From the IMG/VR virus record IMGVR_UViG_3300036781_000147, positions 1 to 52,803 of that record: 52,803 bases of DNA. The stretch is one strand, 5' to 3'. Below are positions 1 through 52,803 of this stretch, piece after piece. The position numbers and the translations under genes are program-made. Positions within the stretch are counted from its first letter, which is position 1, and each line of letters starts with the position of its first letter. Under the pieces are notes generated by a model, which worked only from the letters and a program-made list of their open reading frames with translations, searched no databases and was not told the origin of the DNA. Source of the stretch: a virus. Taxonomy: Duplodnaviria > Caudoviricetes.

Positions 1-135
1 CGGGTTTTTGCCGTTCCCAAAACTGCTCCCAAAACTACCCCCGTGCCTTCCAAACCAGGACAGAAACGGACATCTTGAAGGGGGTCAGCGAGGGGTGGAT
101 AACGAGAAGGTAACGGTAGTGAGTTGTCGTCCTTG
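1..135. repeat. Partial right arm of junction palindrome (inverted repeat of 52598-52732)
   Basis: 1-135 is the reverse complement of 52598-52732 with one mismatch; 1-116 matches 28563-28678 with 4 substitutions. Confidence 0.97.
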
Positions 136-139
136 TTGG

Positions 140-168
140 TTGCACGGTCGCCCCCGGTTCTGTAGGTT
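140..168 (+). promoter_or_regulatory. Sigma70/HrdB-type promoter
   Basis: TTGCAC-N17-TAGGTT immediately outside the repeat arm, followed by GGGAGAG RBS and ATG 199. Confidence 0.7.
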
Positions 169-791: not shown

Positions 792-1316
792 ATGGATGCC
801 ACGACTTACCTGGACGCCGTGAGTGTGGCGTCTGCCAATCTTCACCAAGAGGACGACCGGTTCACCCAGGCGACGGACAGGCTCCGCAGTCTCATCCTCG
901 CCGTGCGTCACGTCCCTGGTGTTGCCGTCCGTGAAATGGCTACGGCCATCGACCGGGACCGCAACTACATCGACTCCGTCACGTCCACCTACCAGGGCTC
1001 CCCTGCCGTCCTCCCTGAGCCTGAGGAGGGGCAGGACAAAGCACAGTACAAAGAACTACTCCTTGGCCTTCTGACGGCCGCGCAGACGGAACAGGATACC
1101 GCGTACGGAGAGGCGAAGATCGCCCGTGTGGTGAGGGACAGGGCCATCGTGGAAGCCTACAAGGCGGACGTCAGAGGTCGCCCCCTGGGCCCGTCCGCCA
1201 TCGGAGCGGCAGCGCACATCGACCGCAACCACGTCTCCCGGATCGTGAAGAACGCGGGCGTCAAGCCCCGCCACCGCTCGAACATCGCCAACCAGTACAG
1301 CCGTAAGGCAGCCTGA
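792..1316 (+). CDS. Putative DNA-binding regulator with two HTH-like repeats
   Basis: GAGGT RBS at 781-785; internal repeats VREMATAIDRDRNYI and PSAIGAAAHIDRNHVSRIV. Confidence 0.7.
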   Translation: MDATTYLDAVSVASANLHQEDDRFTQATDRLRSLILAVRHVPGVAVREMATAIDRDRNYIDSVTSTYQGSPAVLPEPEEGQDKAQYKELLLGLLTAAQTEQDTAYGEAKIARVVRDRAIVEAYKADVRGRPLGPSAIGAAAHIDRNHVSRIVKNAGVKPRHRSNIANQYSRKAA

Positions 1317-1903
1317 TGGGGGCCGCACCTTCCCTCCCTGCCGCACCGGTCGTCCACCCCCACCCCGTCCGGGTAGTGGGGGTGGACCCGTCTTTGACAT
1401 CCACGGGCGTGAGCGACGGGCGCCGCACTCAGGTCGTGTCCTCCGCGTACAAGGGCGAGGACCGACTCAACGATCTGGTCGACCAGCTGATCCCGTTCAT
1501 TGAGTCTGCCGACCTTGTGGTCATGGAGGCGCCCGCGTGGTCTCGTCAGGGACAGGCGCACCATGAGGACCTGACGGGGCTCAGGGTGATGCTCCGCTGC
1601 CTCATGACTCGTCGGCTGACCCCTTTCACCCTCGTCACCCCCAGCAACCTGAAGCGGGCTGTCACAGGCAACGGGTCGGCCGTCAAGCAGACGATGGTCG
1701 ACCACCTGGACCACATGTACGGGCTCGGGCTGTCGGAGTTCAAGGTGTCCCACGGACGCTACGACCGGGCCGACGCGCTGGGTCTGTCGGCCATGGGCTA
1801 CCAGGGACTGCACCAACCGTTGCAGCTGCTGCCCGACTCGCGTGGTCTATTGCAGTCGGCGGTCGACGTCGTGCAATGGCCAACCCTGGCAGTCCGAACC
1901 TGA
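1316..1903 (+). CDS. ruvC: RuvC-like Holliday junction resolvase
   Basis: VVGVDPSLTSTG, LVVMEAP, GNGSAVKQTM and DRADA acidic motifs. Confidence 0.9.
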   Translation: MGAAPSLPAAPVVHPHPVRVVGVDPSLTSTGVSDGRRTQVVSSAYKGEDRLNDLVDQLIPFIESADLVVMEAPAWSRQGQAHHEDLTGLRVMLRCLMTRRLTPFTLVTPSNLKRAVTGNGSAVKQTMVDHLDHMYGLGLSEFKVSHGRYDRADALGLSAMGYQGLHQPLQLLPDSRGLLQSAVDVVQWPTLAVRT

Positions 1904-5212: not shown

Positions 5213-5328
5213 GTGGACGGCAGAGCCCCCTTCCGACCCCCGTCCACTGGCTGAGAATGTGGATCAAGTAGGGCGAAGTGGACGCACGTCAACCCCTCTG
5301 GACGAGCAATGGACGATCTCTGTGGACG
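5213..5328. repeat. (G)TGGACG short-repeat cluster upstream of traB (candidate clt or operator)
   Basis: Copies at 5213, 5241 (rc), 5278, 5298, 5309, 5322 plus variants at 5259 and 5287 (rc). Confidence 0.65.
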
Positions 5329-5407
5329 GGGTTCCCGACATGGTATGATGATGTTGCACCGTATGTATCACTCACAGCCGACGACCACTCACAGTGAGGA
5401 GAAGGAC

Positions 5408-7450
5408 GTGCCGGACAACGACACCATCCATCTGATCACCACCTTGCCCATCAACGAGCCAGACGTCCCGCCCCCGTCCATGGGCGAGCGAGGCCGCGCC
5501 GTAGCCGACCGCGTCCGCACCGCGCTGGACACGGCAGGCCTGCCGTTCGTCTTCCTGGCTGAGCCGTGGAAGCGGAAGAGCGACCGCAGGAAGTCTCTCC
5601 GCACCTCCGCCAACCGGGACGCCATGAGGGAGGCGAACATCGCTCTACGGGCCGCTCACGCACAGCTGCGCAACGACCAGGCGGCGCACGAGCGTGCCGC
5701 CCGCGATTCCGAGCGGGGCAAGAACCTGCCCAAGTGGTTCGACCAGGGGGTCCTGAACAACGGCCTCCTCAACCGCGAGCGTGCGTCAGCCCGACGAGTG
5801 GTCCGGGACAGCCGGGCCCTGGTGAAGGACGCGGAACAGGACGCCCGCGCCGCGAGGAAGAACTACCCGCAGACGCTGCGCCGTCTCGCAACGAAGATCC
5901 ACCTGTCCGCGTTCGCCACCTCGTCGGTGATCGACCTCGTCTCGGGTGGATCACCGCTGGGCCACGCTCTCGTTGCAGGGTCTGTTGCAGCCATTGCATG
6001 CAACACTATTGCGGTCCCGCTCGGTCTGCGTCACCTCCGCAATGCAACAGAGCCTGCAATGCCTGCAACAGAGCCCGACGTGTTGCAGCCGACGCAGGAG
6101 GAAGCCGAGCTGTTGCAGCGGCTGGAGCCGCTCACGTTCGCCTCCCTGGCGGAGGAGAGGAACATGGCCGACGTCGTCTGTGCCGGGGGCAACCTCACCG
6201 ACTCCGGGATTCAGGCAAAGCTGACATTGCAGGGGACGATGGACCTCGCGACGCTGAAGCGCCGCGAAGCTCACCTGCGTGCCGTACTGCGGCTCAAAGA
6301 GGGGACCCGGCTGGAGCTGAGAGACGGGTCCACCGGTGGTCACGCACGGCTCACCCTGCGGACCCGCTCCAAGTCGGACAGCGTGACTCTCACTGGGTGG
6401 CAGCCGGGCGACGCGTGGGGGGTCAACACGGTCACAGGTGAGTCGTTCTCCGTGCTACTCGATCGGCACATGTTGATCGCCGGGACGACTGGGTCCGGAA
6501 AGTCGTGGTCCGCTCGCCCTCTCATGGCGGAAGCGAGTGCCCGTGACGATCACCGTCTGATCGTCCTCGACATGAAGCGGATTGAGGCACGGTTGTGGTC
6601 CCACCGGGCCCGTATCGCCATCACCGCTGAGGAGATTGACGAGGTACTGGCGGAGCTGGTGGACGAGATGTACGAGCGGCTGGACTTGATCCCGCGCGGT
6701 CGTGACACAGTGGAGATCTCTCCGGCCATGCCTCGGATCATTGTGTTCGTGGACGAGGGTGGCGAGCTGATCTCTGAGTCGAAGCGGGCCCGCTACGACG
6801 AGGAGGGCAAGGCGTACAAGATGACTTCTATCTTGGAGAGTCTGATCACTCTCTCTCGCCTCGCTCGTGCGGCGGGTATTGTTCTCATCTGGGCGACCCA
6901 GAAACCGTCCCTATCCGGCAGCACTCCGGGACTGGACACTTCGATCAGTCCGAACCTCACCCGCCGGGTGGGGCTCACGACGGACAACGAAACGGAGTCG
7001 AGCGTCGTCTTCTCTCCCGAGATGGTCAGCAACGGGTGGAAGGCCCACCAGCTTCCGCTGCATGGGTGGGCTCTGATCAAGGACGACGTGACCTCCCGGC
7101 CGGACCGGTGCCGTCTGCGGGCCATCAGCCCTCAGCAAGTCGTGGACCTGCCCGCCGGGCAGGAGTGGCACCGTGACAGCGGGCGCCCCAGCGACCCGTG
7201 GGGCCACGGGTCGGCGACGGACATCGAAGCTCGGCAGGCGATCGAAGATCCTCAGCCGGTACGTATGTCCGCTGAGGAGCGGGACAAGCAGGTGTACGTG
7301 GCACTGGTGGCTGACCCGTGCGTCTCGCTCTCGTCTCTGGCCAAGCAGTTGGGGACGGGGAAGTCCACGATCTCCAACGCGCTGTCCCGTCTGGAAGCCG
7401 GGGGACTGGTGACTAAGGACGCTGACGACTGCTGGAACCCGGTCGGCTGA
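5408..7450 (+). CDS. traB: TraB-like FtsK/SpoIIIE conjugative DNA translocase
   Basis: Two N-terminal TM segments, HMLIAGTTGSGKS Walker A, IIVFVDEGGE Walker B, LARAAGIVLIWATQKP, C-terminal winged helix (SLSSLAKQLGTGKSTISNALSRLEAGGLV). Confidence 0.9.
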   Translation: MPDNDTIHLITTLPINEPDVPPPSMGERGRAVADRVRTALDTAGLPFVFLAEPWKRKSDRRKSLRTSANRDAMREANIALRAAHAQLRNDQAAHERAARDSERGKNLPKWFDQGVLNNGLLNRERASARRVVRDSRALVKDAEQDARAARKNYPQTLRRLATKIHLSAFATSSVIDLVSGGSPLGHALVAGSVAAIACNTIAVPLGLRHLRNATEPAMPATEPDVLQPTQEEAELLQRLEPLTFASLAEERNMADVVCAGGNLTDSGIQAKLTLQGTMDLATLKRREAHLRAVLRLKEGTRLELRDGSTGGHARLTLRTRSKSDSVTLTGWQPGDAWGVNTVTGESFSVLLDRHMLIAGTTGSGKSWSARPLMAEASARDDHRLIVLDMKRIEARLWSHRARIAITAEEIDEVLAELVDEMYERLDLIPRGRDTVEISPAMPRIIVFVDEGGELISESKRARYDEEGKAYKMTSILESLITLSRLARAAGIVLIWATQKPSLSGSTPGLDTSISPNLTRRVGLTTDNETESSVVFSPEMVSNGWKAHQLPLHGWALIKDDVTSRPDRCRLRAISPQQVVDLPAGQEWHRDSGRPSDPWGHGSATDIEARQAIEDPQPVRMSAEERDKQVYVALVADPCVSLSSLAKQLGTGKSTISNALSRLEAGGLVTKDADDCWNPVG

Positions 7451-7461
7451 CCGCCCCCCGA

Positions 7462-7508
7462 CAGAGCCCCGTGCAGAGGTTGCACGGGGCTCTGCTCTGT
7501 GCCATACT
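7462..7508 (+). promoter_or_regulatory. Combined terminator hairpin / promoter
   Basis: 14-bp stem with GAGGT loop; TTGCAC-N17-CATACT. Confidence 0.7.
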
Positions 7509-8445: not shown

Positions 8446-8494
8446 CAGAAGGACCTGTGCAGAGGTTGCACGGGTCCTTCTGCTGTGCCATGAT
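8446..8494 (+). promoter_or_regulatory. Combined terminator hairpin / promoter
   Basis: Stem with same GTGCA-GAGGT-TGCAC core as 7462; TTGCAC-N17-CATGAT. Confidence 0.7.
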
Positions 8495-27561: not shown

Positions 27562-28134
27562 ATGGCAGCGTTGAACGTGCTCGCCGACGCGAGTGAGGCA
27601 CTCCTCGCATGCGTGTGTGAGGCCCTGGACGATATCCCCACGACGCTGCCCGGCATGGCCGGGTGCCCGTGCCGCTCAGGTGTGGTGCCCGGCAATGAGA
27701 TCGCCTGGGACGGATGCGATACCGGGTGCGCCCCGCTGGACGAGGGGAAGTGGTCGGGGCAGCTGGCCGTGAAGACGAACCGGATCTTCGCGTCCGACTT
27801 CGGCAACTTCCCCAGGGAAGCGGCGGTAGTGGCCGACCTGAACGGCTGCAAGGCCACCCCGGTCATGGCGGCGGAACTGGTGGTGTCGGTGATCCGGTGT
27901 GCGCCGATCGGTGACGGGCAGTGCCCGCCGACCGTGGACGAACTGGCAGCTACCGCTCGGCAACAGAACGTAGACATGGTGGCTGTGCGAAAGGGCATCC
28001 TGTGCTGTCTCGCTGGTACAGACCCCACCCGACCCCGTGGCCGGAGGTTCTCCCTGGGCGGCAGCACCACGATAGGGCCACAAGGCGGCTGTGTTGGCTT
28101 TGAGCAGACCGTGACAGTGGATCTGGGATACTGA
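27562..28134 (+). CDS. Tail completion/terminator-like protein
   Basis: GQLAV, VIRCAP, GPQGGCVG motifs; synteny. Confidence 0.75.
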   Translation: MAALNVLADASEALLACVCEALDDIPTTLPGMAGCPCRSGVVPGNEIAWDGCDTGCAPLDEGKWSGQLAVKTNRIFASDFGNFPREAAVVADLNGCKATPVMAAELVVSVIRCAPIGDGQCPPTVDELAATARQQNVDMVAVRKGILCCLAGTDPTRPRGRRFSLGGSTTIGPQGGCVGFEQTVTVDLGY

Positions 28135-28141
28135 GCCACTG

Positions 28142-28181
28142 AGCCCCTGTGCGTCCGTGAGAGCGGCGCACAGGGGTTTTC
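28142..28181 (+). terminator. Intrinsic terminator
   Basis: CCCCTGTGCG...CGCACAGGGG followed by TTTT. Confidence 0.75.
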
Positions 28182-28215
28182 TGTACCTACTACAGAGCTG
28201 ACGTGTCTCGATTCA

Positions 28216-28678
28216 CCGTTACCTTCTCGTTATCTACCCCTCGCTGACCCCCTTCAGGATGTCCGTTTCTGCCCTGGTTTGGAAGGCACGGGGGTAGTTT
28301 TGGGAGCAGTTTTGGGAACGGCAAAAACCTGCTCTGACCTGGGAGAACAGGTGAGGCGGGGGTAGTTTTTCGGGGGAACCCACTCCAAATTCCTACAGTG
28401 AATAGGAAATGGCGATCATGAAACTACCTCTTCTCATGTGCACGCGCGCGTACGCGTAAGAAGTACACCCTGTCAAGATCAACAAATCTCGTTCACTGTA
28501 GGAATTTGGAGTGGGTTCCCCCGAAAAACTACCCCCGCCTCACCTGTTCTCCCAGGTCAGAGCAGGTTTTTGCCGTTCCCAAAACTGCTCCCAAAACTAC
28601 CCCCGTGCCTTCCAAACCAGGGCAGAAACGGACATCCTGAAGGGGGTCAGCGAGGGGTAGATAACGAGAAGGTAACGG
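28216..28678. repeat. Giant palindrome: 187-bp arms (28216-28402, 28492-28678) around an 89-bp spacer
   Basis: Arms are reverse complements on direct reading; internal GGGGGTAGTTTT and GTTTTGGGA sub-repeats. Confidence 0.97.
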
Positions 28679-28734
28679 CATCTGTGATCTACCGTGGGGC
28701 ATGGAAACTCTGTACGGCCGTGAGAGGGGCTCAC

Positions 28735-29115
28735 ATGCCTGCCCGGGTAAACTTGGACGCGTCACGGCTGGAACGCGCCTTGGGGGCCAACGGTGGCCTT
28801 GGTGCCCGCCTTCTGCAGCGTCGGGCCCAGCGGGTGAGGGAACTGGCCCAGCAGTACTCCGCCGCCAACGGCTCCATTGCGGCGGGCATCCGGGTGGGAC
28901 CGGTGGTCAACAAGTCGATCAAGGTCACGTCAACCAACCCCCACACCCGATACGTCAACGACGGCACCCGGCCGCACACGATCCGCCCTCGCCGTCCCGG
29001 TGGCGTGCTCGCCTTTCAGGTCGGCGGCCGGACCGTCTTTGCCCGGCTGGTCCATCACCCCGGGTTCCGGGGGACCCACTTCCTGGAACGTGCGCTGCGT
29101 GACGCCAGGGTGTAG
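28735..29115 (+). CDS. HK97 gp10-like tail-associated protein
   Basis: YVNDGTRPHTIRP...VHHPG..GTHFLERAL motif. Confidence 0.85.
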   Translation: MPARVNLDASRLERALGANGGLGARLLQRRAQRVRELAQQYSAANGSIAAGIRVGPVVNKSIKVTSTNPHTRYVNDGTRPHTIRPRRPGGVLAFQVGGRTVFARLVHHPGFRGTHFLERALRDARV

Positions 29116-40166: not shown

Positions 40167-40403
40167 TCAGGTCCGGATACGGCCACAGGTGCAGCACTGG
40201 AGGACGAACAGATGAGCTACCCAGTCATTGACGTAGGCATGCCTATCACCCGGACACTCGGCTCGAACCGGGCCACCTATGGCTGGTTGCCCGAGGCTGG
40301 CCGCTGCCCGGTCGATGACTCCGCGACTGGCGTTGGTCACCCAGTGGCTCAGCTCCGCCGTGACCACCTTACGGAACATGATCTGTTGCTCTGTCTCACT
40401 CAT
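40167..40403 (-). CDS. Hypothetical protein with C-terminal Cys/His cluster
   Basis: GAGGAAG RBS; C..H...CCTC. Confidence 0.6.
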   Translation of the reverse strand: MSETEQQIMFRKVVTAELSHWVTNASRGVIDRAAASLGQPAIGGPVRAECPGDRHAYVNDWVAHLFVLQCCTCGRIRT

Positions 40404-40411
40404 GATCTTCC

Positions 40412-40684
40412 TCAGATTTCGACGGGCTGGTATCCCTCGGCACGGGCGGCAGCAATGCCTTCCAGGTGGCCTGCTATGGCGGCCGGGTCCTCCTGCATGT
40501 CGAGCCAAAGAGCCAGGCTGTAGGCGCCGCCACGAGCCATCCTGCGTGCTTGGGTGAACTGCTCCATGAAGCGCTGGCGGTCCCGGTACTCATCGATGGC
40601 CAGCACCCGTACCCGGGCCGTCTGCCCCGTGTCGGTGGGCAACCGGTCGCGGTCGTCCCCTTGGTAGACGTATCGGTCGCTCAC
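40412..40684 (-). CDS. Hypothetical protein
   Basis: GTGA coupling, GGAG RBS. Confidence 0.65.
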   Translation of the reverse strand: MSDRYVYQGDDRDRLPTDTGQTARVRVLAIDEYRDRQRFMEQFTQARRMARGGAYSLALWLDMQEDPAAIAGHLEGIAAARAEGYQPVEI

Positions 40685-41010
40685 TGCTCCACCCATTTCA
40701 GGCGACGGACCAGCCAACCGGCTTCCGTCATGCCGTGGTCGTTGAGCAGGTTGATCGCATCGTCCAGTGCTTCCTGACGGACGGATGCGATCTTCAGGTG
40801 CTGATCGAGCTTCATCAGGCGTGCCTCGACTTGCTCCGCGTCCTGGGCCAGCTTGTCGATCTGAGCCTGTACGGATGATTCCTTGCGTGTCCGATGTGCC
40901 CGCTCCATCTCCGACCGCATCGTCTCGGACGCCCGGAGCTCCGCCTCTCGCTCCCCCGACTCGCTCAGCATGTCCCATGCCTTCAGTCGTTCCTCCCGGC
41001 CCCACTTCAT
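40681..41010 (-). CDS. Coiled-coil hypothetical protein
   Basis: GAGGGG RBS; downstream of degenerate cassette promoter at 41051. Confidence 0.75.
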   Translation of the reverse strand: MKWGREERLKAWDMLSESGEREAELRASETMRSEMERAHRTRKESSVQAQIDKLAQDAEQVEARLMKLDQHLKIASVRQEALDDAINLLNDHGMTEAGWLVRRLKWVEQ

Positions 41011-41050
41011 GCTGTGTCCCCTCTGCTCGGTGAGTGCTGTACGGCAGACG

Positions 41051-41083
41051 CTACAGGGGTTGCACCCACATCACAACCCCTGT
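41051..41083. repeat. Degenerate copy of cassette palindrome/promoter
   Basis: CTACAGGGGTTGCAC-CCACA-TCACAACCCCTGT. Confidence 0.8.
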
Positions 41084-41089
41084 TCCTCG

Positions 41090-41641
41090 TCAGCTGGCGA
41101 CCTTGAGGGAACGGCTGTTGCACGCGGCGCAGTACTGCACGAGGCGGGCGGACAGACGGCCGTGAGTGGTCATGTCGTGGCCGTTGATGCAGCGCTCCGT
41201 CATGGGCCGCATGCCGGTCAGAGACCGCAGCTGGGAGCGGAGCTCAGCCCGCATGGGATCGTCCACCAGGTGGCGGCCCTTCACGCACCTGCTCTCGTCG
41301 CAGTCGGCCTTGACCATGCCGACCGGGGGCCGCTCATACATGGCCTCAAAGACCAGCCGACGCACTCCGTACTCCTTCCCCCGGTGACGGACCAGAGGCA
41401 CGCCGAAGCGGCCTGTACGCCCGCTCCACAGCACGTGACCGTCCTGGTGGACCATGTGGTCAAGGAGTTTGTCAGAGAGGCTTGACGCGTTGCTCAGAGG
41501 CGCCACGCCCAGCATCCTGCGAACGCGGGCAACGGCACTCACCGCAGCGTGCACCTCCGCAGCGGTCCGCTTGTCGGACCAGCCTTTCAGGATGAGTTGC
41601 TCGATACGGGCGTGCTTCGGGTGTCGATAGTTCGTGTCCAT
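41090..41641 (-). CDS. HTH + degenerate HNH-endonuclease-like + Zn-finger protein
   Basis: N-terminal HTH; GHVLWSG...RRLVF...ADCDESRCVKGRHL; CINGH...CAAC. Confidence 0.7.
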   Translation of the reverse strand: MDTNYRHPKHARIEQLILKGWSDKRTAAEVHAAVSAVARVRRMLGVAPLSNASSLSDKLLDHMVHQDGHVLWSGRTGRFGVPLVRHRGKEYGVRRLVFEAMYERPPVGMVKADCDESRCVKGRHLVDDPMRAELRSQLRSLTGMRPMTERCINGHDMTTHGRLSARLVQYCAACNSRSLKVAS

Positions 41642-41756
41642 GAGTATCACCCTACCCGCACATGCACCCGGCACACAACACCGCACCCCCTGGCCCAGGG
41701 AGTGGCCAGGGGGTGCGGTGGAGCACGACAGCTCTTGTTACCGGTGTAACTCTACC

Positions 41757-42032
41757 TCACGTTTGCGCCATGCGGCGCATTACCCGCTGCGACCGCGCTG
41801 TACGGCGCTCTGCCGGGGTGAGGCCGCCCCACACGCCGTACGACTCCTTGCGGTCCTGGGCTGCCGCGAGGCAGGCAGTCATGACCGGACAGGCATGGCA
41901 GGTGGCGCGGGCAGCGTCGATCGCCTCGTGGTCCTCGTCGGCGGGGAACATGTTCGGGGAGCCCAGCTTGGAGCACTCAGCATCCAGCTTCCAGTCGTGG
42001 GTGTCCGGGAAGCGGAAGTCAGTGGCGGTCAT
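41757..42032 (-). CDS. whiB: WhiB-family transcription factor
   Basis: W...AEC, CHACPVMTAC, GVWGGLTPAER. Confidence 0.95.
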   Translation of the reverse strand: MTATDFRFPDTHDWKLDAECSKLGSPNMFPADEDHEAIDAARATCHACPVMTACLAAAQDRKESYGVWGGLTPAERRTARSQRVMRRMAQT

Positions 42033-42088
42033 CGTGTCTCCTTCGTGACGGAGAGGGACCATTTCGATCCCTTTCCAGCGGGTGTGGA

Positions 42089-42442
42089 TCAGGCGGACAG
42101 GTGGGCGAGCATGGTGGCCTTGGCAACGACGAACCGGGCGGCACGGGGGTTGTAGGCGTGCAGTGCGGTGAGCACCTGGGTCCGGTGGTAGCGGTAGGCG
42201 ACTCGCTTGTGAGAGCCCTTCGGAAGCTTGCCCTTGGCGGTGCGAGTGACCAACACGCGTCGGCAGTCGCTTCCCTGCTGCTTGGCCTTGGCCCGCAGAG
42301 CGCCGCCGATGCCGGATGCCGTGTTGGCGTCCAGTCCGGCCGTGATCGCGTGCGACGCCATAGTGTGCGCCTTACGGGCAGAGCGTCGGGCAGCCTCACG
42401 GGTGCGGACCGTGTTGCGGATCTGTCGGGCCTTGGCGTTCAT
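42089..42442 (-). CDS. Basic hypothetical protein (cassette 1)
   Basis: CAGGGAG RBS; own cassette promoter. Confidence 0.75.
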   Translation of the reverse strand: MNAKARQIRNTVRTREAARRSARKAHTMASHAITAGLDANTASGIGGALRAKAKQQGSDCRRVLVTRTAKGKLPKGSHKRVAYRYHRTQVLTALHAYNPRAARFVVAKATMLAHLSA

Positions 42443-42476
42443 CGTGTCTCCCTGGTCTGTCGTGCTGACAAGAGAA

Positions 42477-42524
42477 ACACTACAGGGGTTGCACCAACAG
42501 TGCAACCCCTGTAGGTCAAGCTGG
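42477..42524 (-). promoter_or_regulatory. Cassette repeat 1: 35-bp palindrome containing TTGCAC-N17-TAGTGT promoter
   Basis: CTACAGGGGTTGCAC-CAACA-GTGCAACCCCTGTAG. Confidence 0.85.
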
Positions 42525-42533
42525 AACTTCGGA

Positions 42534-42893
42534 TCAGCGCTGGGCCCACCGGAGCTCAGCGGCTACGAGTGCAGCGTCCCACGTCTCCTGCCTGTCCTGG
42601 ACCGACTGGGCCTTGAACAGTGCCTCACGAACCTCCCACGAAGCGGAAGGGACCAGTTCACCCACAACTCTCATCGCGTCGACCCCACCGTACGGCGTGT
42701 CGTACCGGCTCAGTTCTGTGACCGGGACCCCCAGACGGTGTAGCACGTGGCCGACCACACAGCTCGGAGCGCCGTCACGGACGTACTGGCAGTTGCCCTC
42801 TGCGTCGCTCTCATACACGTAGTTGGGCCGTTCAGCCACGACGTTGTGCAGGGTCAACATGATCTTCTCGTCGCTCGCGTAGACGTGCTTCAC
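42534..42893 (-). CDS. Hypothetical protein (cassette 2), paralog of 42983-43360
   Basis: SDEK..ERP.YVYES...C.YV.DGAPSCV.GHVL.RLGV...AQ..QD...W. Confidence 0.85.
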   Translation of the reverse strand: MKHVYASDEKIMLTLHNVVAERPNYVYESDAEGNCQYVRDGAPSCVVGHVLHRLGVPVTELSRYDTPYGGVDAMRVVGELVPSASWEVREALFKAQSVQDRQETWDAALVAAELRWAQR

Positions 42894-42897
42894 GGTC

Positions 42898-42974
42898 TCT
42901 CCCTGGTTGGTGGTCTGTCGATAGAGACACTACAGGGGTTGCACCAACAGTGCAACCCCTGTAGGTCAAGCTGG
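42898..42974 (-). promoter_or_regulatory. Cassette repeat 2
   Basis: Palindrome 42930-42964 plus leader/RBS near-identical to 43365-43432. Confidence 0.85.
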
Positions 42975-42982
42975 TCCGCGTA

Positions 42983-43360
42983 CTACTTCGCGAACTGATC
43001 CATGTAACGAGTCGCCATGCCCAGCGAGTGGGTCCAGTCGTAGCCCTGGTCCTGGCTAACCTGGGCCTCACGAAGTGCGCTCGCCATGTCATCGCTCACC
43101 CCGTCCAGCGTCTTACCTACGACCTCGTCAGCACCCGACCCGCCGCCGTTGTCGAACCGGGCCAGGGTGTCCAGCGAGACACCCAGCCGGGACAACACGT
43201 GTCCAATCACGCAGCTCGGGGCGCCGTCCTGGACGTACAGACAGACGGTGTCGCCCTCCGCGTCCTCCATACCGCTCTCGTACACGTAGTCGGGCCGCTC
43301 CGACACGACCTCGGACAGCATGGCCATGACCTTCTCGTCACTGGTCCCGATCTTCCGCAT
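42983..43360 (-). CDS. Hypothetical protein (cassette 3), paralog of 42534-42893
   Basis: Shared motifs as above. Confidence 0.85.
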   Translation of the reverse strand: MRKIGTSDEKVMAMLSEVVSERPDYVYESGMEDAEGDTVCLYVQDGAPSCVIGHVLSRLGVSLDTLARFDNGGGSGADEVVGKTLDGVSDDMASALREAQVSQDQGYDWTHSLGMATRYMDQFAK

Positions 43361-43364
43361 GACC

Positions 43365-43432
43365 TCTCCCTGGTTGGTGGTCTGTCAATAGAGACACTAC
43401 AGGGGTTGCACCAACCGTGCAACCCCTGTAGG
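43365..43432 (-). promoter_or_regulatory. Cassette repeat 3
   Basis: Palindrome 43397-43431 plus CCAACCAGGGAGAG leader. Confidence 0.85.
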
Positions 43433-43436
43433 CGAA

Positions 43437-43643
43437 TCAGTCGAGCATCTTCCTCACGCTGTCCAACCGCACCTTCGCGATGCCCACAGAGCGCACCAGC
43501 TGTTGCCCCCGAGGACACGGCCGGTCGTCGGTGCAGGCGGAGCAGTAGTGGCCGTGGGCAACCGACTTGCTGCGGAGTCCTTCCAGCACCATGGCCCGGT
43601 GCTCGATGATCCCCTCGATGCGGTCCCTGTTCAGCTGATCCAT
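43437..43643 (-). CDS. Small Zn-binding protein
   Basis: HYCSAC...PCPRG motif; CAGGGAGAGG RBS. Confidence 0.75.
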   Translation of the reverse strand: MDQLNRDRIEGIIEHRAMVLEGLRSKSVAHGHYCSACTDDRPCPRGQQLVRSVGIAKVRLDSVRKMLD

Positions 43644-43770
43644 GATCTGTCCTCTCCCTGGGGTGTAGCAACAGCATACAGCAATGAGCCCCGTGCAACT
43701 AGTGCACGGGGCTCATGAACTACCAATCACCTACTGCTCACGTATGGACTGCGTCCATTCTGAGCAAAGC

Positions 43771-47487: not shown

Positions 47488-47606
47488 ATTGATCCCTTCC
47501 GGTGATTGGGTGGTCCGCTCGATGGCGGATACCGGGTGTGTGGAGATGGTACAACGCGGATCAGGGCCGACGCAACTAGGCGTCAGCCCTGATCAGGTGG
47601 TGCGGT

Positions 47607-47819
47607 TCAGCGAGTGAGGGAGGCTCGGACGACCTCGCCCCGCTGGGTGAGCGTGAACCCCTCGTGCTCCCGGTTGTACGTGAGCCGATCGACAAGACCA
47701 AGGTCAATCAACTTCAGCAGGGTCGACAGCTTGGTCGCTCCCTGGTAGCGGCCGAACACCTTTCGTGTGTCCTGGATTGCTTCGATGATCTCAGGGGTGA
47801 GGTGAGAGGCCATGGTCAC
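47607..47819 (-). CDS. Small winged-helix-like hypothetical protein
   Basis: LLKLIDLGLV...FTLTQRG; GTGA overlap with upstream gene. Confidence 0.65.
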   Translation of the reverse strand: MTMASHLTPEIIEAIQDTRKVFGRYQGATKLSTLLKLIDLGLVDRLTYNREHEGFTLTQRGEVVRASLTR

Positions 47820-47947
47820 TTCCTGTCATTGTCGCGGTTGGCTTCCTGGCGGCGCTTACCGGCGCTCGACTTGCGCGCGTTACCGGTAGGGTTCTGGCCC
47901 ACCATGTCCCGGCCACTGTCCGGTTCGATCTTCTTCGGCTTGCCCAT
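47816..47947 (-). CDS. 43-aa basic hypothetical protein
   Basis: GAGGTAGGA RBS; below ORF-track cutoff. Confidence 0.55.
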   Translation of the reverse strand: MGKPKKIEPDSGRDMVGQNPTGNARKSSAGKRRQEANRDNDRK

Positions 47948-47959
47948 CGGTCCTACCTC

Positions 47960-48127
47960 TCAGTCCTGGTAGACGTCTCCGAGAGACACGTACGGGGTGA
48001 CTGTGGACCCGAGCCACCCGTAGCGGATCTCGTCGGCAGCGTTCTGAAGCTCCCCGACCGCGCCTTCCGGGTCCTCTTCGAACGCCAGCATCACGCGCTC
48101 TACCATCAGTGCTGCTCGCTCGTCCAT
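47960..48127 (-). CDS. 55-aa acidic hypothetical protein
   Basis: CAGGGA RBS; upstream TTGACA-N18-CATGAT promoter. Confidence 0.6.
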   Translation of the reverse strand: MDERAALMVERVMLAFEEDPEGAVGELQNAADEIRYGWLGSTVTPYVSLGDVYQD

Positions 48128-48192
48128 GTCTTATCCCTGTTCGGTGGTGATGCATTCATCATGCACCACCACCGCAGAGACTGTCAAGTTCC

Positions 48193-50466
48193 TCAGGCGA
48201 ACGGGTCACTGTCGGCGAACGGGTCGGGTGCGTCGAACCCGTCCTTCAGCGCGTCCATGTACGTGAGGCCCTGTACGGGCGTCAGACGCTCGATCACAGG
48301 CTCGGTGGCCACGGGTACCGGCTCCACGCTCAAAGGCGCCACAGAGGCTGCCTGAGCCGTTTCAGCGGGCATCTGCGGCTCGGGGACGGCAGGAAGCTTT
48401 GGCACTCCCCACGCGTCATCCATGTCGAGAACTCCAGACTCCTCAATCGGGTCCGGCTCGATGTCTTCCTGGTGCTCGTCGCCCGTGGTGATGACCACAT
48501 TGAAGGCGAGCGCCTTGTCCTTGGTCTTGCACAAGACTAGGTTCCCGGCGTTGTGCAGACGGGCGTAGAAGTTGTTCCGGCCGATGCGGATGTTCTGGTC
48601 CTTGGACCACTGGTTGAAGGCGTCGTAGACGGCCTTCCGGTTGGTGACCTTGTCGGCCGGACCCACCCGGTCCGCTTCGGCGTCGGTGAAGCGGAGCATC
48701 TCCCCCGCGAACTGAGCCACCAAGTCCGACTTGCGAGCGAACTTCTGCATGGTCTCAGCGTCCGAGGGACGGTACCCGCCACGGGCCAGGAACCTCTGGT
48801 ACGCCCTCACCCACCGGGTGAGAATCCCCGGCAGCTCCGCGTCCATGCGGACTTCGAGGGTCTTGTCCTCATGGCCCGCGAAGGAGTTGGGGAACTCGAA
48901 CGGCTTGATCCGCTCCACGTACGCGGCCGACTCCTCGTTGACCGTGGGCACCTCGTTGGCGGAGAAGGCCATCATCGCCTGGTTGGTGAAGCTGAACGGC
49001 TGCTTCCCCTTGCGCTCCGCTTCGATCGGGTCATCACCCGTGATCATCTTCCAGGCGGATAGGTCCTTCACGTGGCGGGAAGAGAGGTCGGCCGACACGT
49101 TGAGCATCTTGCCGTACAGGTTCGCGGACATGAACCGGTTCTCGCTGAGCTGGTGGAGGGACATCGCGCTGTGGTTCTCGTGGCCCGCGATCTTCGCCAG
49201 AATCCGCAGCATGGTCGACTTGCCGGAACGGGACGGGCCGAAGACGAACAGGGCCTTGGACGCGGTCCGGCTCGGGTCCAGCATCGTCCCGACCGTCTCC
49301 TCCAAGTCATCGATCATGTCGTCCAGGGCCGCATCGTCCATGCCCGGCCGACGCAGTGACTTGTGCAGCCACTCAAGGTAGAGCGGAGTCGCCACGTCGG
49401 GATCGTAGGGAATCGGGCTTTGCGCGGTGGACAGGTACTTCTGGTCGTGGGGCAGCATGCGGCCGGTTCTCAGGTCCACCATGCCGTTCGCACAGTTGAA
49501 CAGCGCGACTCCCTGGCGGTCGACCATCTCCATGCCGTCGTCGGAGAGCTGCTGACGAGCGTGAGCCTCCATCTGTTCCATGCGGCTGTGGGTGTAGCCG
49601 TTGCCGAGCATGCGGGTACAGGCGTACTGGAACGCCATGGGGTTCACCCGGAACGCGCCCCGTTCGTAGAACAGGATGTCGTGGTTCTGAGCGATGGCAC
49701 ACGGGTTGGCCTCGATCATGGCGATGGCAGCATCCTGCGCACTGAACTCCACAGGCGCCCCGGCCGCCTTGAAGAACCTGTCCGCGTCGCCCACGCTCGC
49801 ACGCTTGCGGGCTGGACGACGGGGGAGCTTCGGACCTGCCTTGGCAAGCCAGGTCCGAAGCGCATTGCCCCGCGCCTCGTCATTGTCGAACATGGCGAGC
49901 GCATCGTCCAGCCCCTGCTTACCCTGACCGATGGTCTTGACGATGCTGACCTCGTTGGCGTTGGACAGGTGCAGCCGCTCGCGCAGCTCGTCAGCCGCCT
50001 CCCAGACGTCGCGATTCGTGGACACGTCGGCGTCCAGCAGCAGGAAGGCGTCCCGTCCGTCCACGACGGACAGGTCAGCGTGGACGTACCCCCGGCAACC
50101 GGACATGCCGTAGACGGCGTACTCGGCAGGCGCGTGGGAAGCGGCAGCGTACTGCTGCTTGGTGCCCTCCACGATGATCACCTTGGTGCAGTTCTCGTTG
50201 TCCCTCACCCGGTTAAAGCCGACCTTGGACCCCTTGGGGAAGAGGTACTTGATCAGTCGGCCGTCGTCGTCCTTGGACGGGTTATCGGGCCGCAGCTGCA
50301 TCACGGGCTGTTCGCGGCCGTCGTCCCAGGGGAAGAGAAGACCGGTCTTTCCACGGCTGGTGTACTCAGCGATTCCGCTGGTGGCGATGACACCCGGCGT
50401 GATGGCGGAGTCGGTCAGCAACCGCAGGTGCGCCTCACTCAGAGTGCATTGCGTGGTAGGGTTCAT
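48193..50466 (-). CDS. DNA primase / SF3 helicase (TOPRIM-like + D5/P4-type)
   Basis: IIVEGTKQ, LLDAD, GLDD; NCANGMVDL; FGPSRSGKST; KMITGDD. Confidence 0.92.
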   Translation of the reverse strand: MNPTTQCTLSEAHLRLLTDSAITPGVIATSGIAEYTSRGKTGLLFPWDDGREQPVMQLRPDNPSKDDDGRLIKYLFPKGSKVGFNRVRDNENCTKVIIVEGTKQQYAAASHAPAEYAVYGMSGCRGYVHADLSVVDGRDAFLLLDADVSTNRDVWEAADELRERLHLSNANEVSIVKTIGQGKQGLDDALAMFDNDEARGNALRTWLAKAGPKLPRRPARKRASVGDADRFFKAAGAPVEFSAQDAAIAMIEANPCAIAQNHDILFYERGAFRVNPMAFQYACTRMLGNGYTHSRMEQMEAHARQQLSDDGMEMVDRQGVALFNCANGMVDLRTGRMLPHDQKYLSTAQSPIPYDPDVATPLYLEWLHKSLRRPGMDDAALDDMIDDLEETVGTMLDPSRTASKALFVFGPSRSGKSTMLRILAKIAGHENHSAMSLHQLSENRFMSANLYGKMLNVSADLSSRHVKDLSAWKMITGDDPIEAERKGKQPFSFTNQAMMAFSANEVPTVNEESAAYVERIKPFEFPNSFAGHEDKTLEVRMDAELPGILTRWVRAYQRFLARGGYRPSDAETMQKFARKSDLVAQFAGEMLRFTDAEADRVGPADKVTNRKAVYDAFNQWSKDQNIRIGRNNFYARLHNAGNLVLCKTKDKALAFNVVITTGDEHQEDIEPDPIEESGVLDMDDAWGVPKLPAVPEPQMPAETAQAASVAPLSVEPVPVATEPVIERLTPVQGLTYMDALKDGFDAPDPFADSDPFA

Positions 50467-50711
50467 GTCGTTCCTTCCATTTCTTAGCGGGTGTGGCGGG
50501 GCTCGGAGGCTCGGGGTGATCGTCCCGAGCCTCTTTCCTTTTTCCGTGTGGGTCTGACCGTAGACCCTATCTCACCCGATGTGCAACTTTGGATCACTAC
50601 AGCTGGTTGTGGCGGGACGTACACGCTCACGTGGGCCGGGTCCTCAAGTCGGGTGCCGGGCGGCGGTGCCAGCGTACCCCCTCCGCCGGGTGGACGGAGG
50701 GGGAGGGCCTG

Positions 50712-52535
50712 TCACGAGTTGACGTACGAGCCGAAGCGGTGGTCCAGCACCCGGCTCACCTTCGCCGCTGCGATGCAGTCGCTCGCCTCGCCCTTGCGCA
50801 TCGGCTCGGTAGGCCGGGACCCGAAGCGGGCGAGGATGGTCAGCTGCGCCTCGCTGGCAGGCTTGCGGCGCCATGAGGCACTCCGGCTGCCGTACTGGTA
50901 CCCCGCCTCGTCAGCGACGCGCTCAAGGGCTTCTACGGCTTCCTCTACGGAAACCGCCCCGTCGTCCAGCCGGGTTACCGGAGCGGTCGGGTACATGCCG
51001 TCCACGCGGCCCTGGAAGAACCCGCCGTCCGGCGCAGGCAGGAGGAACACGTGAGTCTCCGTGCCAATGGGAAGGAAGCGAATCCCGGCGTGCGTGGTCG
51101 CCCAGGCGTGCCGGGAGGCGTCCACCTTCTTCGCCAGGATGTTGACTTCCAGCAGGTCCGCCGCGTCGATCACCAGCTCCTCAGGTTCGACCACGTCACC
51201 CGCGAAGCACTCGCACCCCACAGCGCACTGGCACGGCTGCTCCTCCTCCACGCTCGGGACGATCTCGCAGTCACACGGGCACATGCCCGAGCCGACGCAC
51301 TCACAGACGCGCAGCGCCGGACACTCGTGGTTGCCGACACAGTCACATCCGCACTGGCGCATACCGCACTTGCACTGGCCACCTGAACAGCCACAGAGAA
51401 GGCACTCGCAGCGGCAGCTGGACGTGCAGTTGTCGGCCAGGTCATTGACGCCCGCGAGCGAGTGCTTCAACGACGCGCCCGCCACGTCCAGGACCACACA
51501 GTCGTCCTTGGACGGGTGGAGCCTCAGCCCCCGGCCGACCATTTGGATCATCAGTCCCGGGTTGATCGTGGGGCGGCCGACCAGAACGCATGACGTATGG
51601 GGCTGGTCCCACCCCTCCGTGGCGACCATGCAGTTCACCAGGACGGTGGTCTGACCCGAGGCGTACCGGTCGTACACGGCGGAGCGCTCTGCCGACTTCA
51701 TTGAGCCGACCACATACTCCGCACTCACGCCAGCCTCGTTGAACGCGTCGGTCATGCGCCTCGTCGTGTCAACATTCGGCATGAACGCCACCGTGGGCCG
51801 ACCAGCCGCGTGTGCTTGGTGCTGCTGGACGATCAAGCTGAACGCGTTCGCCTTGACCAGCATGGTGGCGATGTCGCCCGTGTTCAGGTCACCTGCCGTC
51901 ACGCGCGCCTGGTCCACGCTGAAGCCGGGGACGACCGCGCTGTAGGCGCGAGGCGGGACCAGGAAGCCTTGGGAGATCATCCACTCGATCTCCTTGGTGT
52001 AGGCCACTCGCTGCCACACCTCGGGCAGGCCACCCTGCATCCTGTTGAGCGTGGCGGTAAAGCCGACCACGGGGGTGCCCCCGTCCTCCATGGCGCCGTA
52101 GTGGCGGAGGATGTCCATGTACGACTTGGACGCGGCATGGTGGCACTCGTCCACGATGATCAGCCCGACGCGATCCAGCGCGGTCCGTCGCTTCTCCCGG
52201 GCCAAGGTCTGCACCGACGCCACGACGACATCGCAGAACTGCTGGTCCTTGCGGCCTCGGGACGCCTTGACGACGCACACCCATAGGCCGGGGTTCTGCA
52301 GCTTCACCCGGGCGGCAGCCTGATCAAGCAACTCCTCACGGTGGGCGAGGATGAGGATTCGCTTCCCCTGGGCCTTGAGCCGCTCGATGTGGCGGCCCAC
52401 CAGGGCGGAGAACACGGTCGTCTTGCCCGCCCCCACGGGGAGGATGCAGACGGGTCGGTTGAACCCCTCATCCCACAGGGACTCGATGGCGGTGATCGCC
52501 TCGTTCTGGTACGGGCGCAAGGTCACGGCAGGCAC
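50712..52535 (-). CDS. SF2 DEAD/DEAH-box helicase with Cys-rich insertion
   Basis: LRPYQ, PVGAGKT, DECHH, GFTAT, TEGWD, QMVGRGLR; AGGAAGGA RBS, GTG start. Confidence 0.93.
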   Translation of the reverse strand: MPAVTLRPYQNEAITAIESLWDEGFNRPVCILPVGAGKTTVFSALVGRHIERLKAQGKRILILAHREELLDQAAARVKLQNPGLWVCVVKASRGRKDQQFCDVVVASVQTLAREKRRTALDRVGLIIVDECHHAASKSYMDILRHYGAMEDGGTPVVGFTATLNRMQGGLPEVWQRVAYTKEIEWMISQGFLVPPRAYSAVVPGFSVDQARVTAGDLNTGDIATMLVKANAFSLIVQQHQAHAAGRPTVAFMPNVDTTRRMTDAFNEAGVSAEYVVGSMKSAERSAVYDRYASGQTTVLVNCMVATEGWDQPHTSCVLVGRPTINPGLMIQMVGRGLRLHPSKDDCVVLDVAGASLKHSLAGVNDLADNCTSSCRCECLLCGCSGGQCKCGMRQCGCDCVGNHECPALRVCECVGSGMCPCDCEIVPSVEEEQPCQCAVGCECFAGDVVEPEELVIDAADLLEVNILAKKVDASRHAWATTHAGIRFLPIGTETHVFLLPAPDGGFFQGRVDGMYPTAPVTRLDDGAVSVEEAVEALERVADEAGYQYGSRSASWRRKPASEAQLTILARFGSRPTEPMRKGEASDCIAAAKVSRVLDHRFGSYVNS

Positions 52536-52571
52536 GGGTACGTCCTTCCTGGTCACAGCGGGTGAGAGGCC

Positions 52572-52600
52572 AGTATAGCAACAGCCCCGCACTAGGTCAA
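52572..52600 (-). promoter_or_regulatory. Strong leftward promoter of replication arm
   Basis: TTGACC-N17-TATACT; -35 overlaps outer edge of the repeat arm. Confidence 0.8.
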
Positions 52601-52803
52601 GGACAACAACTCACTACCGTTACCTTCTCGTTATCCACCCCTCGCTGACCCCCTTCAAGATGTCCGTTTCTGTCCTGGTTTGGAAGGCACGGGGGTAGTT
52701 TTGGGAGCAGTTTTGGGAACGGCAAAAACCCGCTCTGACCTGGGAGAACAGGTGAGGCGGGGGTAGTTTTTCGGGGGAACCCACTCCAAATTCCTACAGT
52801 GAA
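52598..52803. repeat. Left arm of junction palindrome
   Basis: 52617-52803 is a direct repeat of 28216-28402 with 4 substitutions; contig ends exactly where the spacer would begin. Confidence 0.97.

Follow-up and report, generated by a model that had tools for sequence, protein, structure and literature searches.

Palindromes of a siphovirus genome as copies of an origin-like, two-fold symmetric cassette family common to Woodruffvirus phages

What role could two giant palindromes have in the genome of a tailed phage? The question is raised by the DNA analysed here, referred to as the window, which is the entire 52,803-bp IMG/VR record IMGVR_UViG_3300036781_000147 (record class 'linear', CheckV completeness of 88%) and which carries a 463-bp palindrome at 28216-28678 and a second copy divided between the two contig ends. 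Both palindromes belong to a so far unremarked family of non-coding, two-fold symmetric and presumably protein-binding cassettes, which this phage has in common with Woodruffvirus. The feature is real and has the build of an origin-like cassette, being iteron-flanked, AT-rich at the centre, palindromic, present in several copies and positioned at module boundaries; its function is suggested by analogy.

The two arms of the internal palindrome are exact reverse complements (0/187 mismatches) on either side of an 89-nt spacer, in agreement with the dimensions given in an earlier note on this DNA. By a repeat search the paired length grows to 206 nt (96%), leaving 51 nt between the arms, and the element folded as single-stranded DNA (ssDNA) reaches -273.5 kcal/mol, compared with -70.1 +/- 4.7 for shuffled sequences (z of -43; 0 of 100 shuffles as good). 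The parts of the element are the following:

28216..28402: left arm, with the one-directional repeats AGTTTT (three copies), CGGGGG (three), TGGGA (three) and GGGGGTAGTTTT (two)
28403..28491: asymmetric spacer of 89 nt, in which AT-rich zones flank the 10-nt palindromic centre ACGCGCGCGT at 28442-28451
28492..28678: right arm, exact reverse complement of 28216-28402

AGTTTT, CGGGGG and TGGGA have no opposite-strand copy within the same arm and, because the arms are inverted, the two sets of iterons oppose each other. The left arm also carries CTGACCTG and ACAGGTGAGG, the counterpart of a 9-mer conserved in relatives, as well as the inner box CCAAATTCCTACAGT. The ACGCGCGCGT centre lies exactly in the middle of the element and the plan of the spacer is conserved with relatives, while k-mers shorter than the arms cannot fix which way round the 89-nt spacer lies in the contig. 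The spacer and the inner arm ends include the two lowest-GC 50-nt windows of the contig, at 28388 and 28458 (0.38 vs a mean of 0.651), and its lowest-GC 100-nt window (45%, starting at 28387) is in the same zone. The element was previously placed inside the tail operon; it is instead located between two head-tail connector genes, 27562-28134 (phrog_810) and 28735-29115 (phrog_5).

By gene content the window is a siphovirus genome. Among cultured phages it is closest to the Woodruffvirus (cluster BG) Streptomyces phages YDN12, TP1604, Xkcd426, Abt2graduatex2, Geonosis, phiSAJS1 and Mischief19, with which its primase has 45-51% amino-acid identity. The cluster BG phages YDN12, TP1604, Xkcd426 and two others have prolate heads and circularly permuted genomes (PMC5511901), and Geonosis is described, in the available part of its paper, as a virulent phage (PMC11536984). 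Homologous quasi-palindromes of 230-395 bp, three per genome, were found in 6/6 Woodruffvirus genomes by searching the whole records, which gave six matches each, corresponding to three places on two strands; YDN12, Xkcd426 and phiSAJS1 were also compared with themselves. In all six relatives, the first place is just upstream of a small gene and the portal gene, the second just upstream of the minor-tail block, and the third in a divergent gap of ~600 bp beside the primase gene. The earlier note knew of no equivalent in actinophages, a statement that these six genomes overturn as to the elements themselves, while no description of them was found in the literature.

The 18 half-elements aligned with the window arms, together with the comparison of the centres and k-mer counts, gave one shared plan, which from the outside in consists of iterons, the 9-mer, a CCAAnnTTCC-TA box, ~40 AT-richer nt and a GCGCGC centre. 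The outer repeats are phage-specific, with three to four per arm, all in one direction within the arm:

Window: AGTTTT (three copies), CGGGGG and TGGGA
YDN12 and Xkcd426: GGCAG (three copies)
Abt2graduatex2: GGCAGAA (three copies)
phiSAJS1: TCCCGCG (four copies)
Mischief19: GCATGC (four copies; TGCATGC three copies), GCATGC(TGAGTGAA)

Opposed sets of iterons, each with its own motifs, hold in five relatives too. The 9-mer GCAGGTCAG is present in 18/18 half-elements of YDN12, Xkcd426 and phiSAJS1; at its position the window has ACAGGTGAGG, plus the inverted CTGACCTG. The window thereby has all parts of the family plan, with iterons in the arms, a near copy of GCAGGTCAG, the TA-box after CCAAnnTTCC, the GCGCGC centre, an intergenic location and at least two copies. 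In YDN12, five of the ten lowest-GC windows fall within its elements. Two annotated features of the same genome, gp09 (7334-7498) and the start of gp21 (19755), are inside the quasi-palindromic elements and are probably over-calls.

Beyond this group, BLASTN of the element, along the lines proposed in the earlier note, gave no match in 50,697 phage records, an arm 25-mer had none in viral contigs, and a helicase-seeded protein search of viral contigs was also without a match. An adaptor-seeded search of viral contigs returned eight loci at 32-46% identity, none of them with a palindrome within 6 kb. The search of metagenome contigs with the gene upstream of the internal palindrome gave two short contigs at 50-54% identity, of which one is without the element and the other (L035) ends in related-looking repeats. 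In L035, which encodes a 54% amino-acid relative of 27562-28134, the stretch 1780-2137 after a Neck1-like gene is non-coding and has two direct repeats with GCAGGTCG and a TACACACATATGCATAGCGCGG end; the contig stops in this repeat stretch, which looks like a related element that also broke the assembly. No published description of these repeats was found in the literature searched, which did not cover subscription journals; the cluster BG paper (PMC5511901) does not describe them, and the available part of the Geonosis paper (PMC11536984) makes no mention of palindromes, inverted repeats, hairpins or repeats.

At the contig ends, 52617-52803 is the left arm again and 1-116 is the outer part of the right arm again. 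The two copies differ at four transitions (28235/52636, 28257/52658, 28272/52673 and 28330/52731), each mirrored in the partner arm of the same copy (28659/97, 28637/75, 28622/60 and 28564/2), so that this part of the earlier description was confirmed position by position. The limits 52617-52803 and 1-116 were also right, but the palindrome is longer, since the pairing extends 19 nt outward (1-135 with 52598-52732) with a single mismatch (128/52605):

52598..52803: left arm of the junction palindrome, made of the 187-nt arm 52617-52803 and the 19-nt outer extension; the contig stops at the last base of the perfect arm
1..135: part of the right arm of the junction palindrome, made of the outer 116 nt and the 19-nt extension, with one arm-to-arm mismatch, at 128

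That this copy spans a junction was assumed from a circular genome; the arms do match, although the record is classed as linear and the contig lacks the spacer as well as the right arm's inner 71 nt. Position 1 of the contig equals 128 minus 127, which places it exactly one k=127 overlap ahead of the outermost difference between the arms, and 52803 is the final base of the perfect arm, beyond which two routes into the non-palindromic spacer part ways. These ends would fit a k=127 de Bruijn break of a circular map at a hairpin-loop repeat. A circular map with ~160 nt missing was accepted as the likely arrangement, because the shared variants and the 19-nt extension tie both contig ends to one palindrome, because the relatives carry the element in the same divergent gap, and because the contig runs through the terminase region, where the records of the relatives start.

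A selfish foldback element similar to miniature inverted-repeat transposable elements (MITEs), or an assembly artefact, would also present long terminal inverted repeats, a contig that breaks inside the second copy, an element position one gene off from that of YDN12 and a possible 2-bp direct repeat CA...CA around the internal copy, seen by eye and expected by chance in 1 of 16 cases; the TA...TA at the junction copy belongs to the palindrome. Against mobility, the same three sites are filled in 6/6 relatives, no transposase or recombinase was found in the contig, and an arm 22-mer had just two chance matches of 23-24 nt in genomes of 185,579 species, on which ground a host-borne MITE was rejected. 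Arm symmetry as an artefact is unlikely because every variant lies 20-115 nt from unique flank and is hence read-linked, because the assembler retained the mismatch at 128, and because the flanks of the internal copy adjoin in relatives, where they are neighbouring genes. Weak support of the same kind comes from an independent contig set of one public soil-metagenome run, possibly from the same sample, in which an 87-nt arm unitig has 389x vs 250x for the flank. The search for public sequencing runs gave that run and none of RNA, and its contigs cover 27900-29000 with two pieces only (28592-28678 and 28649-29000), none of which bridges the palindrome, and the breaks fall in the arms. Both versions of this explanation are taken to be very improbable.

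The protein most likely to be connected with the cassettes in a reading as origins is encoded near the junction copy:

48193..50466, minus strand: primase-helicase of 757 aa, candidate initiator, with D5_N and DUF5906 (SF3) domains

This primase-helicase exceeds the cut-off of TIGR01613 (P4-family primase) with 157 bits vs 108.7. Its only sequence match in the PDB is 7OLA (E of 1.5e-8), which is also the best fold match of its structural model (pLDDT 82; E of 3.7e-17, TM of 0.67 on the target). 7OLA is PriRep5 of the Staphylococcus aureus pathogenicity island SaPI5, which the available part of its report describes as a self-loading SF3 helicase-initiator with a C-terminal winged helix that binds iterons of 5-6 nt (PMC9371898). 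According to the same source, the SaPI ori is next to rep, its iterons, six to twelve in number, are split evenly between the two sides of a central AT-rich region and run in opposite directions, and two hexamers are thought to load there (PMC9371898). In the model of the window protein, helices at 570-580, 582-590, 610-622 and 630-638 and strands at 645-659 (pLDDT ~75-93) precede a disordered tail from 665, giving a helix-helix-strand-strand unit at ~570-660; the fold search was made with the whole protein and does not give the aligned ranges of 7OLA. Among ~300 homologues of the primase-helicase, some carry a fused family-A DNA polymerase domain (1230-1322 aa), and others, which may belong to prophages or islands, are annotated as P4-family primases in genomes of Streptomyces scabiei and S. 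europaeiscabiei.

The window has the three components of this origin plan, namely at least two iterons on each side in opposed sets, a central AT-rich region between the sets, and an initiator of the P4/PriRep family in the same genome. One copy of the element is upstream of the primase gene in 6/6 relatives, the other copies being 12-28 kb away, and in the window the helicase gene is between the junction copy and the primase gene. No other iteron array was found in the three stretches scanned near replication genes (47450-48250, 50400-50780 and 40300-41100). Because the element plan matches the SaPI ori, because one copy is always beside replication genes, and because these three stretches have no iteron array, the reading ranked first is that the cassettes are multi-copy replication origins or initiator-docking sites for the P4-family SF3 primase-helicase of the phage, a proposal that is put forward tentatively and with somewhat less than even confidence. 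The paired origins suggested in the earlier note are thus favoured, on the circumstantial grounds of opposed iterons, the lowest-GC spot, a PriRep-like primase and the SaPI plan, with the function assigned by analogy. By comparison with SaPI PriRep and P4 alpha, two hexamers would load head to head on the opposed iterons and open the AT-rich middle; the primase-helicase would bind the cassettes and replication would fire from them. The cassettes may all be origins, or one origin with auxiliary cis sites, as P4 ori and crr.

Several points weigh against such an assignment. For origins it is unusual to have two or three copies in a genome, with two of the copies situated among virion genes, and the elements (230-463 bp) exceed the SaPI ori fragments, given in the available part of the source as ori-containing PCR products of 318-367 bp (PMC9371898). 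The helicase gene separates the junction copy of the window from the primase gene, while the YDN12 element is ~350 bp from the primase start. The D5-type helicase-primases of poxviruses and African swine fever virus also match the fold, which alone is therefore no proof of an initiator role, and both primase binding and initiation at the cassettes are argued from analogy. An origin model assigns no role to the conserved 9-mer or to the GCGCGC centre. Furthermore, the right-hand genes begin 0-85 nt after the elements in the annotation of YDN12, Xkcd426 and phiSAJS1, and 57 and 64 nt after them in the window, which would be simpler if the elements contained promoters, and the inner box TACAGT of the window equals the -10 of the early promoters of the phage.

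These last two points introduce the main rival explanation, in which the cassettes are activator-dependent (e.g., WhiB-like-dependent) bidirectional promoters or insulators heading the virion modules and the divergent early region, similar to promoter early stem-loops (PeSLs). Repeated intergenic sequences of phages are usually promoters or operators. The elements are always intergenic and at module starts, reverse-strand genes abut their left side in Xkcd426 (gp9) and phiSAJS1 (gp24), and a terminator-like hairpin, 28144-28176 followed by TTTT, was seen by eye 3' of 27562..28134 and ahead of the internal copy, although the scan made no such call. TACAGT is the -10 of the early promoters with TTGCAT/TTGCGC-17-TACAGT (1975, 2891 and 4911) and TGC-TACAGT (11594 and 12460); it was found at nine sites, seven of them on the plus strand, two of which are in palindromes. 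Four of the five early promoter sites are followed by a conserved leader, CCAACC...GGAG plus start codon, and the 1975 site by GGGAGAG plus ATG, with no CCAACC. Additionally, the phage encodes a factor that could serve as activator, and one promoter and one possible promoter are next to the junction copy:

41760-42062: WhiB-like factor
52572..52600, minus strand: sigma-70-type promoter TTGACC-17-TATACT (10/12, TG present), which abuts the outer end of the junction palindrome and reads towards the helicase
140..168, plus strand: possible promoter TTGCAC-17-TAGGTT, located just beyond the junction palindrome and before the ATG at 199, noted by eye and not called in the consensus scan

The sigma-70-like promoter scan, however, gave 0 sites in 27900-29000 and in 1-450, its sole hit (52600-52572) being outside the 187-nt arms, and with canonical promoters flanking the junction copy the palindrome is not needed there as a promoter. 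The TACAGT box has no -35 or TG and faces inward, which would give face-to-face promoters ~100 bp apart. The aligned box of the six relatives (TATAGA, TATAAG or TATACG) lacks the T of position 6 of a -10 in either direction, so that the inner box is weakened as a promoter candidate. In Abt2graduatex2, a 100% identical sequence heads an early and a late module, a poor fit with temporal control. As for a likeness to PeSLs, the blocks next to the elements are shuffled between phages in the manner that the consulted part of the PeSL literature describes (PMC2839356): the block of major tail protein (MTP), adaptor, gp19 and gp20 and that of the tape measure protein (TMP) swap beside elements in YDN12 and Xkcd426 vs phiSAJS1. 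No internal sigma-70-like promoter was found, and the element is a huge stem-loop with no T-run, in which the scan calls no terminator. A transcriptional role is considered doubtful, though it deserves weight.

The relatives' 18 elements have an arm self-complementarity of 0.64-0.82, and the between-copy arm identity in the poorer orientation is 0.64-0.80, so that the arms match each other no more than copies do. Self-complementarity was compared with between-copy identity in place of covariation, which is uninformative on hairpin selection because the arms are paralogous and gene conversion would mimic the signal. All 18 elements fold as long ssDNA hairpins (z of -7.3 to -28), and perfect arms were seen in the window only. 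Because the arms of the relatives are only 64-82% self-complementary, the family appears to function without perfect pairing, and hairpin perfection is special to this lineage; the sequences give no family sign that pairing itself is maintained, and symmetric binding sites would suffice.

Template switching from arm to arm probably produced the perfect arms. In each copy, one arm would have been copied onto its partner, and two such events, one per copy, would suffice for the mirrored differences; the template may have been switched intramolecularly on a nascent-strand hairpin, or mismatches may have been corrected inside an extruded hairpin. Template switching at quasipalindromes is a known mechanism that perfects imperfect inverted repeats, as stated in the available parts of two reports (PMC7202029, PMC8794818). 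Arm perfection would then be a by-product of copying, unneeded for the function of the element. Of the two ideas in the earlier note, selection for a hairpin or cruciform and copying through one, the second is the simplest for arms that are identical within copies and differ by 2% between them, and the first is disfavoured by the 64-82% arms of the relatives.

Homogenisation is also evident between copies in the relatives, where comparison of the copies of one genome over +/-160 nt gives a likeness of 75-95% in one relative orientation. Copies 1 and 3 of Abt2graduatex2 are 100% identical over 292 bp and those of Mischief19 are 90-94% identical. Concerted evolution within genomes follows from such likeness, together with the lack of any BLASTN match of the window element in phage records. 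The relative orientation of the copies varies between phages, and in YDN12 the halves pair as a-b, b'-c and c'-a' (95%, 97% and 87%), so that each inter-element segment has its own flanking inverted repeat.

The neighbours of the elements are ordered differently between phages. In the window, these are:

27562..28134, plus strand: gene left of the internal palindrome, phrog_810, homologue of YDN12 gp19
28735..29115, plus strand: gene to the immediate right of that palindrome, which encodes a Neck1/tail-completion protein (phrog_5) and shares the frame of the open reading frame (ORF) 28438-29115 (by tblastn and PHROGs)
50712..52592, minus strand: SF2 (ResIII/DEAD) helicase gene, between the primase gene and the junction palindrome

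The order in YDN12 and Xkcd426 is TMP, element, head genes-MTP-adaptor-gp19-gp20, element, minor tails; in phiSAJS1 the TMP block and the MTP-to-gp20 block are exchanged relative to it, and the window has a third, canonical order. There the element is between the gp19 and gp20 homologues, and the helicase gene is on the other side of its element and on the other strand compared with its homologue in the six relatives. In YDN12 and Xkcd426 the element has the homologue of the Neck1 gene on its left. Because adjacent gene blocks are ordered differently between phages, the elements are at rearrangement break points. A constant right-hand neighbour for each element was considered and rejected, as it holds for the three annotated relatives and fails for the window. 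By comparison of these genomes, the repeated cassettes also serve as recombination substrates, for homogenisation within the genome and for rearrangement of neighbouring blocks between phages. The tape-measure gene is unusually placed, between the terminase and portal genes in YDN12 and Xkcd426 and after the head genes in phiSAJS1, which has the major tail protein, adaptor and two connector genes before the portal gene; chaperone-like genes remain beside the terminase in all three.

Recombination or isomerisation sites are a further explanation, in which a cruciform or exchange between copies would invert the 28-kb and 24-kb arcs, or a RuvC-like cut would start recombination-dependent replication. 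Between the two copies, arm identity is 98% whichever relative orientation is compared, and the own inverted repeats of the YDN12 segments, the varying orientation of copies among phages and the helicase gene inverted across the element between the window and the relatives are in line with it. An exonuclease is encoded by the window, together with one enzyme that may act on extruded palindromes:

1316..1903, plus strand: RuvC-like Holliday-junction resolvase, the sole junction-cutting enzyme found

However, PF00589 (tyrosine recombinase) and PF00239 (serine recombinase) have 0 matches in the contig, while the controls were positive in 14 and 12 of 14 genomes, and the protelomerase PF16684 has 0 matches in the contig, which may miss ~160 nt but not a gene. 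A site-specific inversion system of the FLP/FRT or Hin/Gin type was rejected for the lack of a cognate recombinase in the contig, and a protelomerase target or hairpin telomere for the absence of PF16684 and the presence of an 89-nt non-palindromic spacer. With four fixed differences between copies and none within a copy, exchange between copies is the rarer, and frequent inversion of the arcs is therefore disfavoured; the gene orientation of the large segments is identical in all six sequenced relatives, whose arms (64-82%) are too diverged for efficient homologous exchange. A spacer of 89 nt (51 nt effective) slows the extrusion of cruciforms from duplex DNA, and extrusion is accordingly disfavoured here. 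The inversion sites of 2-micron or herpes simplex virus type and the resolution sites raised in the earlier note thus find no recombinase or protelomerase Pfam match and meet four fixed differences, and recombination as the primary role is regarded as unlikely by a wide measure.

A combined form of the origin and recombination readings, itself unlikely, though slightly less so than recombination sites alone, would be a self-homogenising multi-origin system, in which the RuvC-like resolvase and the exonuclease would process hairpins or cruciforms of the palindromes, starting recombination-dependent replication and reshuffling or flipping gene blocks. If so, initiation, concerted evolution and the modular rearrangement of a tailed phage genome would be linked through a single DNA element, and virions with more than one orientation of the spacer or segments would be expected.

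The arm repeats have another candidate binder in the window:

5309..7450, plus strand: FtsK/SpoIIIE-like translocase of 713 aa, with a C-terminal winged helix-turn-helix at residues 657-705

In this case, the elements would be recognition loci that guide DNA pumping by the phage translocase (e.g., between hyphal compartments), comparable to clt or to KOPS/SRS. TraB binds the clt sites of Streptomyces conjugative plasmids, and KOPS and SRS are polar motifs. The repeats of the elements are likewise short and polar, converge on the centre and are purine-rich in several phages (GGCAGAA). Full-length homologues of the translocase (at least 80% cover) occur in just 12 of 50,697 phage records, the two named ones being the Woodruffvirus phages Xkcd426 and TP1604, but the co-occurrence of translocase and element has no weight, as most genes are common to the whole group. 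In Mischief19, three good elements go together with a homologue that is only partial and on the reverse strand, and translocation gives the AT-rich centre no role. Recognition by the translocase is accordingly held to be improbable, more so than the use of the cassettes as recombination sites.

With the genes already mentioned, the gene content of the window includes:

Plus strand: RuvC-like resolvase, FtsK-like translocase, large terminase, portal, MuF-like protein, major capsid, head-tail adaptor, tape measure and endolysin
Minus strand: exonuclease, family-A DNA polymerase, primase-helicase and SF2 helicase

For the SF2 helicase, the longest ORF has its start at 52592; the GTG at 52535, after AGGAAGGA (by eye) and downstream of the TTGACC-17-TATACT promoter, is likely its true start. 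Other repeats were also observed. Four copies of a 35-nt hairpin, CTACAGGGGTTGCACC...GCAACCCCTGTAG, are between small leftward genes at 41036-43441; two of these genes, 42537-42893 and 42986-43360, both phrog_572, are paralogues of each other, and a direct repeat of 160 nt is found at 42806/43273. The GC-rich hairpin GAGCCCCGTGCA...TGCACGGGGCTC has three copies (7464-7492, 8450-8478 and 43686-43714), probably terminators, that at 8450 being just ahead of where the records of the relatives begin. No Rfam family reached its gathering score in the whole window.

If the cassettes are origins, a whole genus of virulent Streptomyces phages would gain its first candidate replication origins along with a probable reader protein, which is directly testable in cultured relatives (YDN12, TP1604 and Geonosis) and useful for phage-derived replicons. 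A repeated cis element at the break points of gene blocks in siphoviruses is also a concrete substrate of modular evolution outside the T4 group. Furthermore, one element is found in two regimes, with diverged arms in the six relatives and self-copied, perfect 187-nt arms here, and this contrast bears on the origin and persistence of long palindromes in bacterial viruses.

Among known systems, the 2-micron FRT sites, the herpesvirus repeats and the telomere palindromes of N15 and poxviruses are also large inverted repeats that divide a genome into two arcs; they differ in that the window has no FLP-like, invertase-like or telomere-resolvase gene, its copies are not co-homogenised and its spacer is long and non-palindromic. 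Template switching at quasipalindromes likewise copies one arm from the other and yields mirrored substitutions without selection, although the cases described in the available parts of the reports have short stems (PMC7202029, PMC8794818) and the arms here are of 187 nt. The PeSLs of T4-type phages are, in the parts of the sources at hand, promoter-terminator cassettes that mediate module shuffling (PMC2839356, PMC4122927). Both they and the present elements are small, repeated, non-coding cassettes bordering gene blocks that are shuffled between relatives; PeSLs, in contrast, have many copies with promoters that are sigma-70-like and strong, along with terminator stem-loops, whereas no internal promoter was found here and the copies are two to three.

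The oriL and oriR of Bacillus phage SPP1 are bound by the replisome organiser G38P and are not large palindromes. SPP1 resembles the present case in having two discrete, distant origin-like regions, one among late genes, in a headful-packaging siphovirus, and it differs in its G38P-bound sites without large palindromes. The alpha primase-helicase of P4 binds both the P4 ori and crr, a direct-repeat structure a few kb from ori. The likeness is in a P4-family primase-helicase (TIGR01613 cut-off exceeded here) and in more than one distant cis site with the same iterons, while crr has direct repeats a few kb away and is no palindrome, and the present sites, with their two-fold symmetry, lie 12-28 kb from each other. 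The SaPI ori, as described in the available part of its report, is a single origin directly downstream of rep, compared with the two to three copies of 230-463 bp here, two of them among virion genes, and the present cassettes add a conserved 9-mer and a GCGCGC centre, with binding predicted only. In the same partial text, however, the SaPI ori and its Rep/PriRep share with them element-specific, short iterons in two opposed sets around a central AT-rich region (PMC9371898), and PriRep5 (7OLA) is the closest solved relative of the window primase in both sequence and fold.

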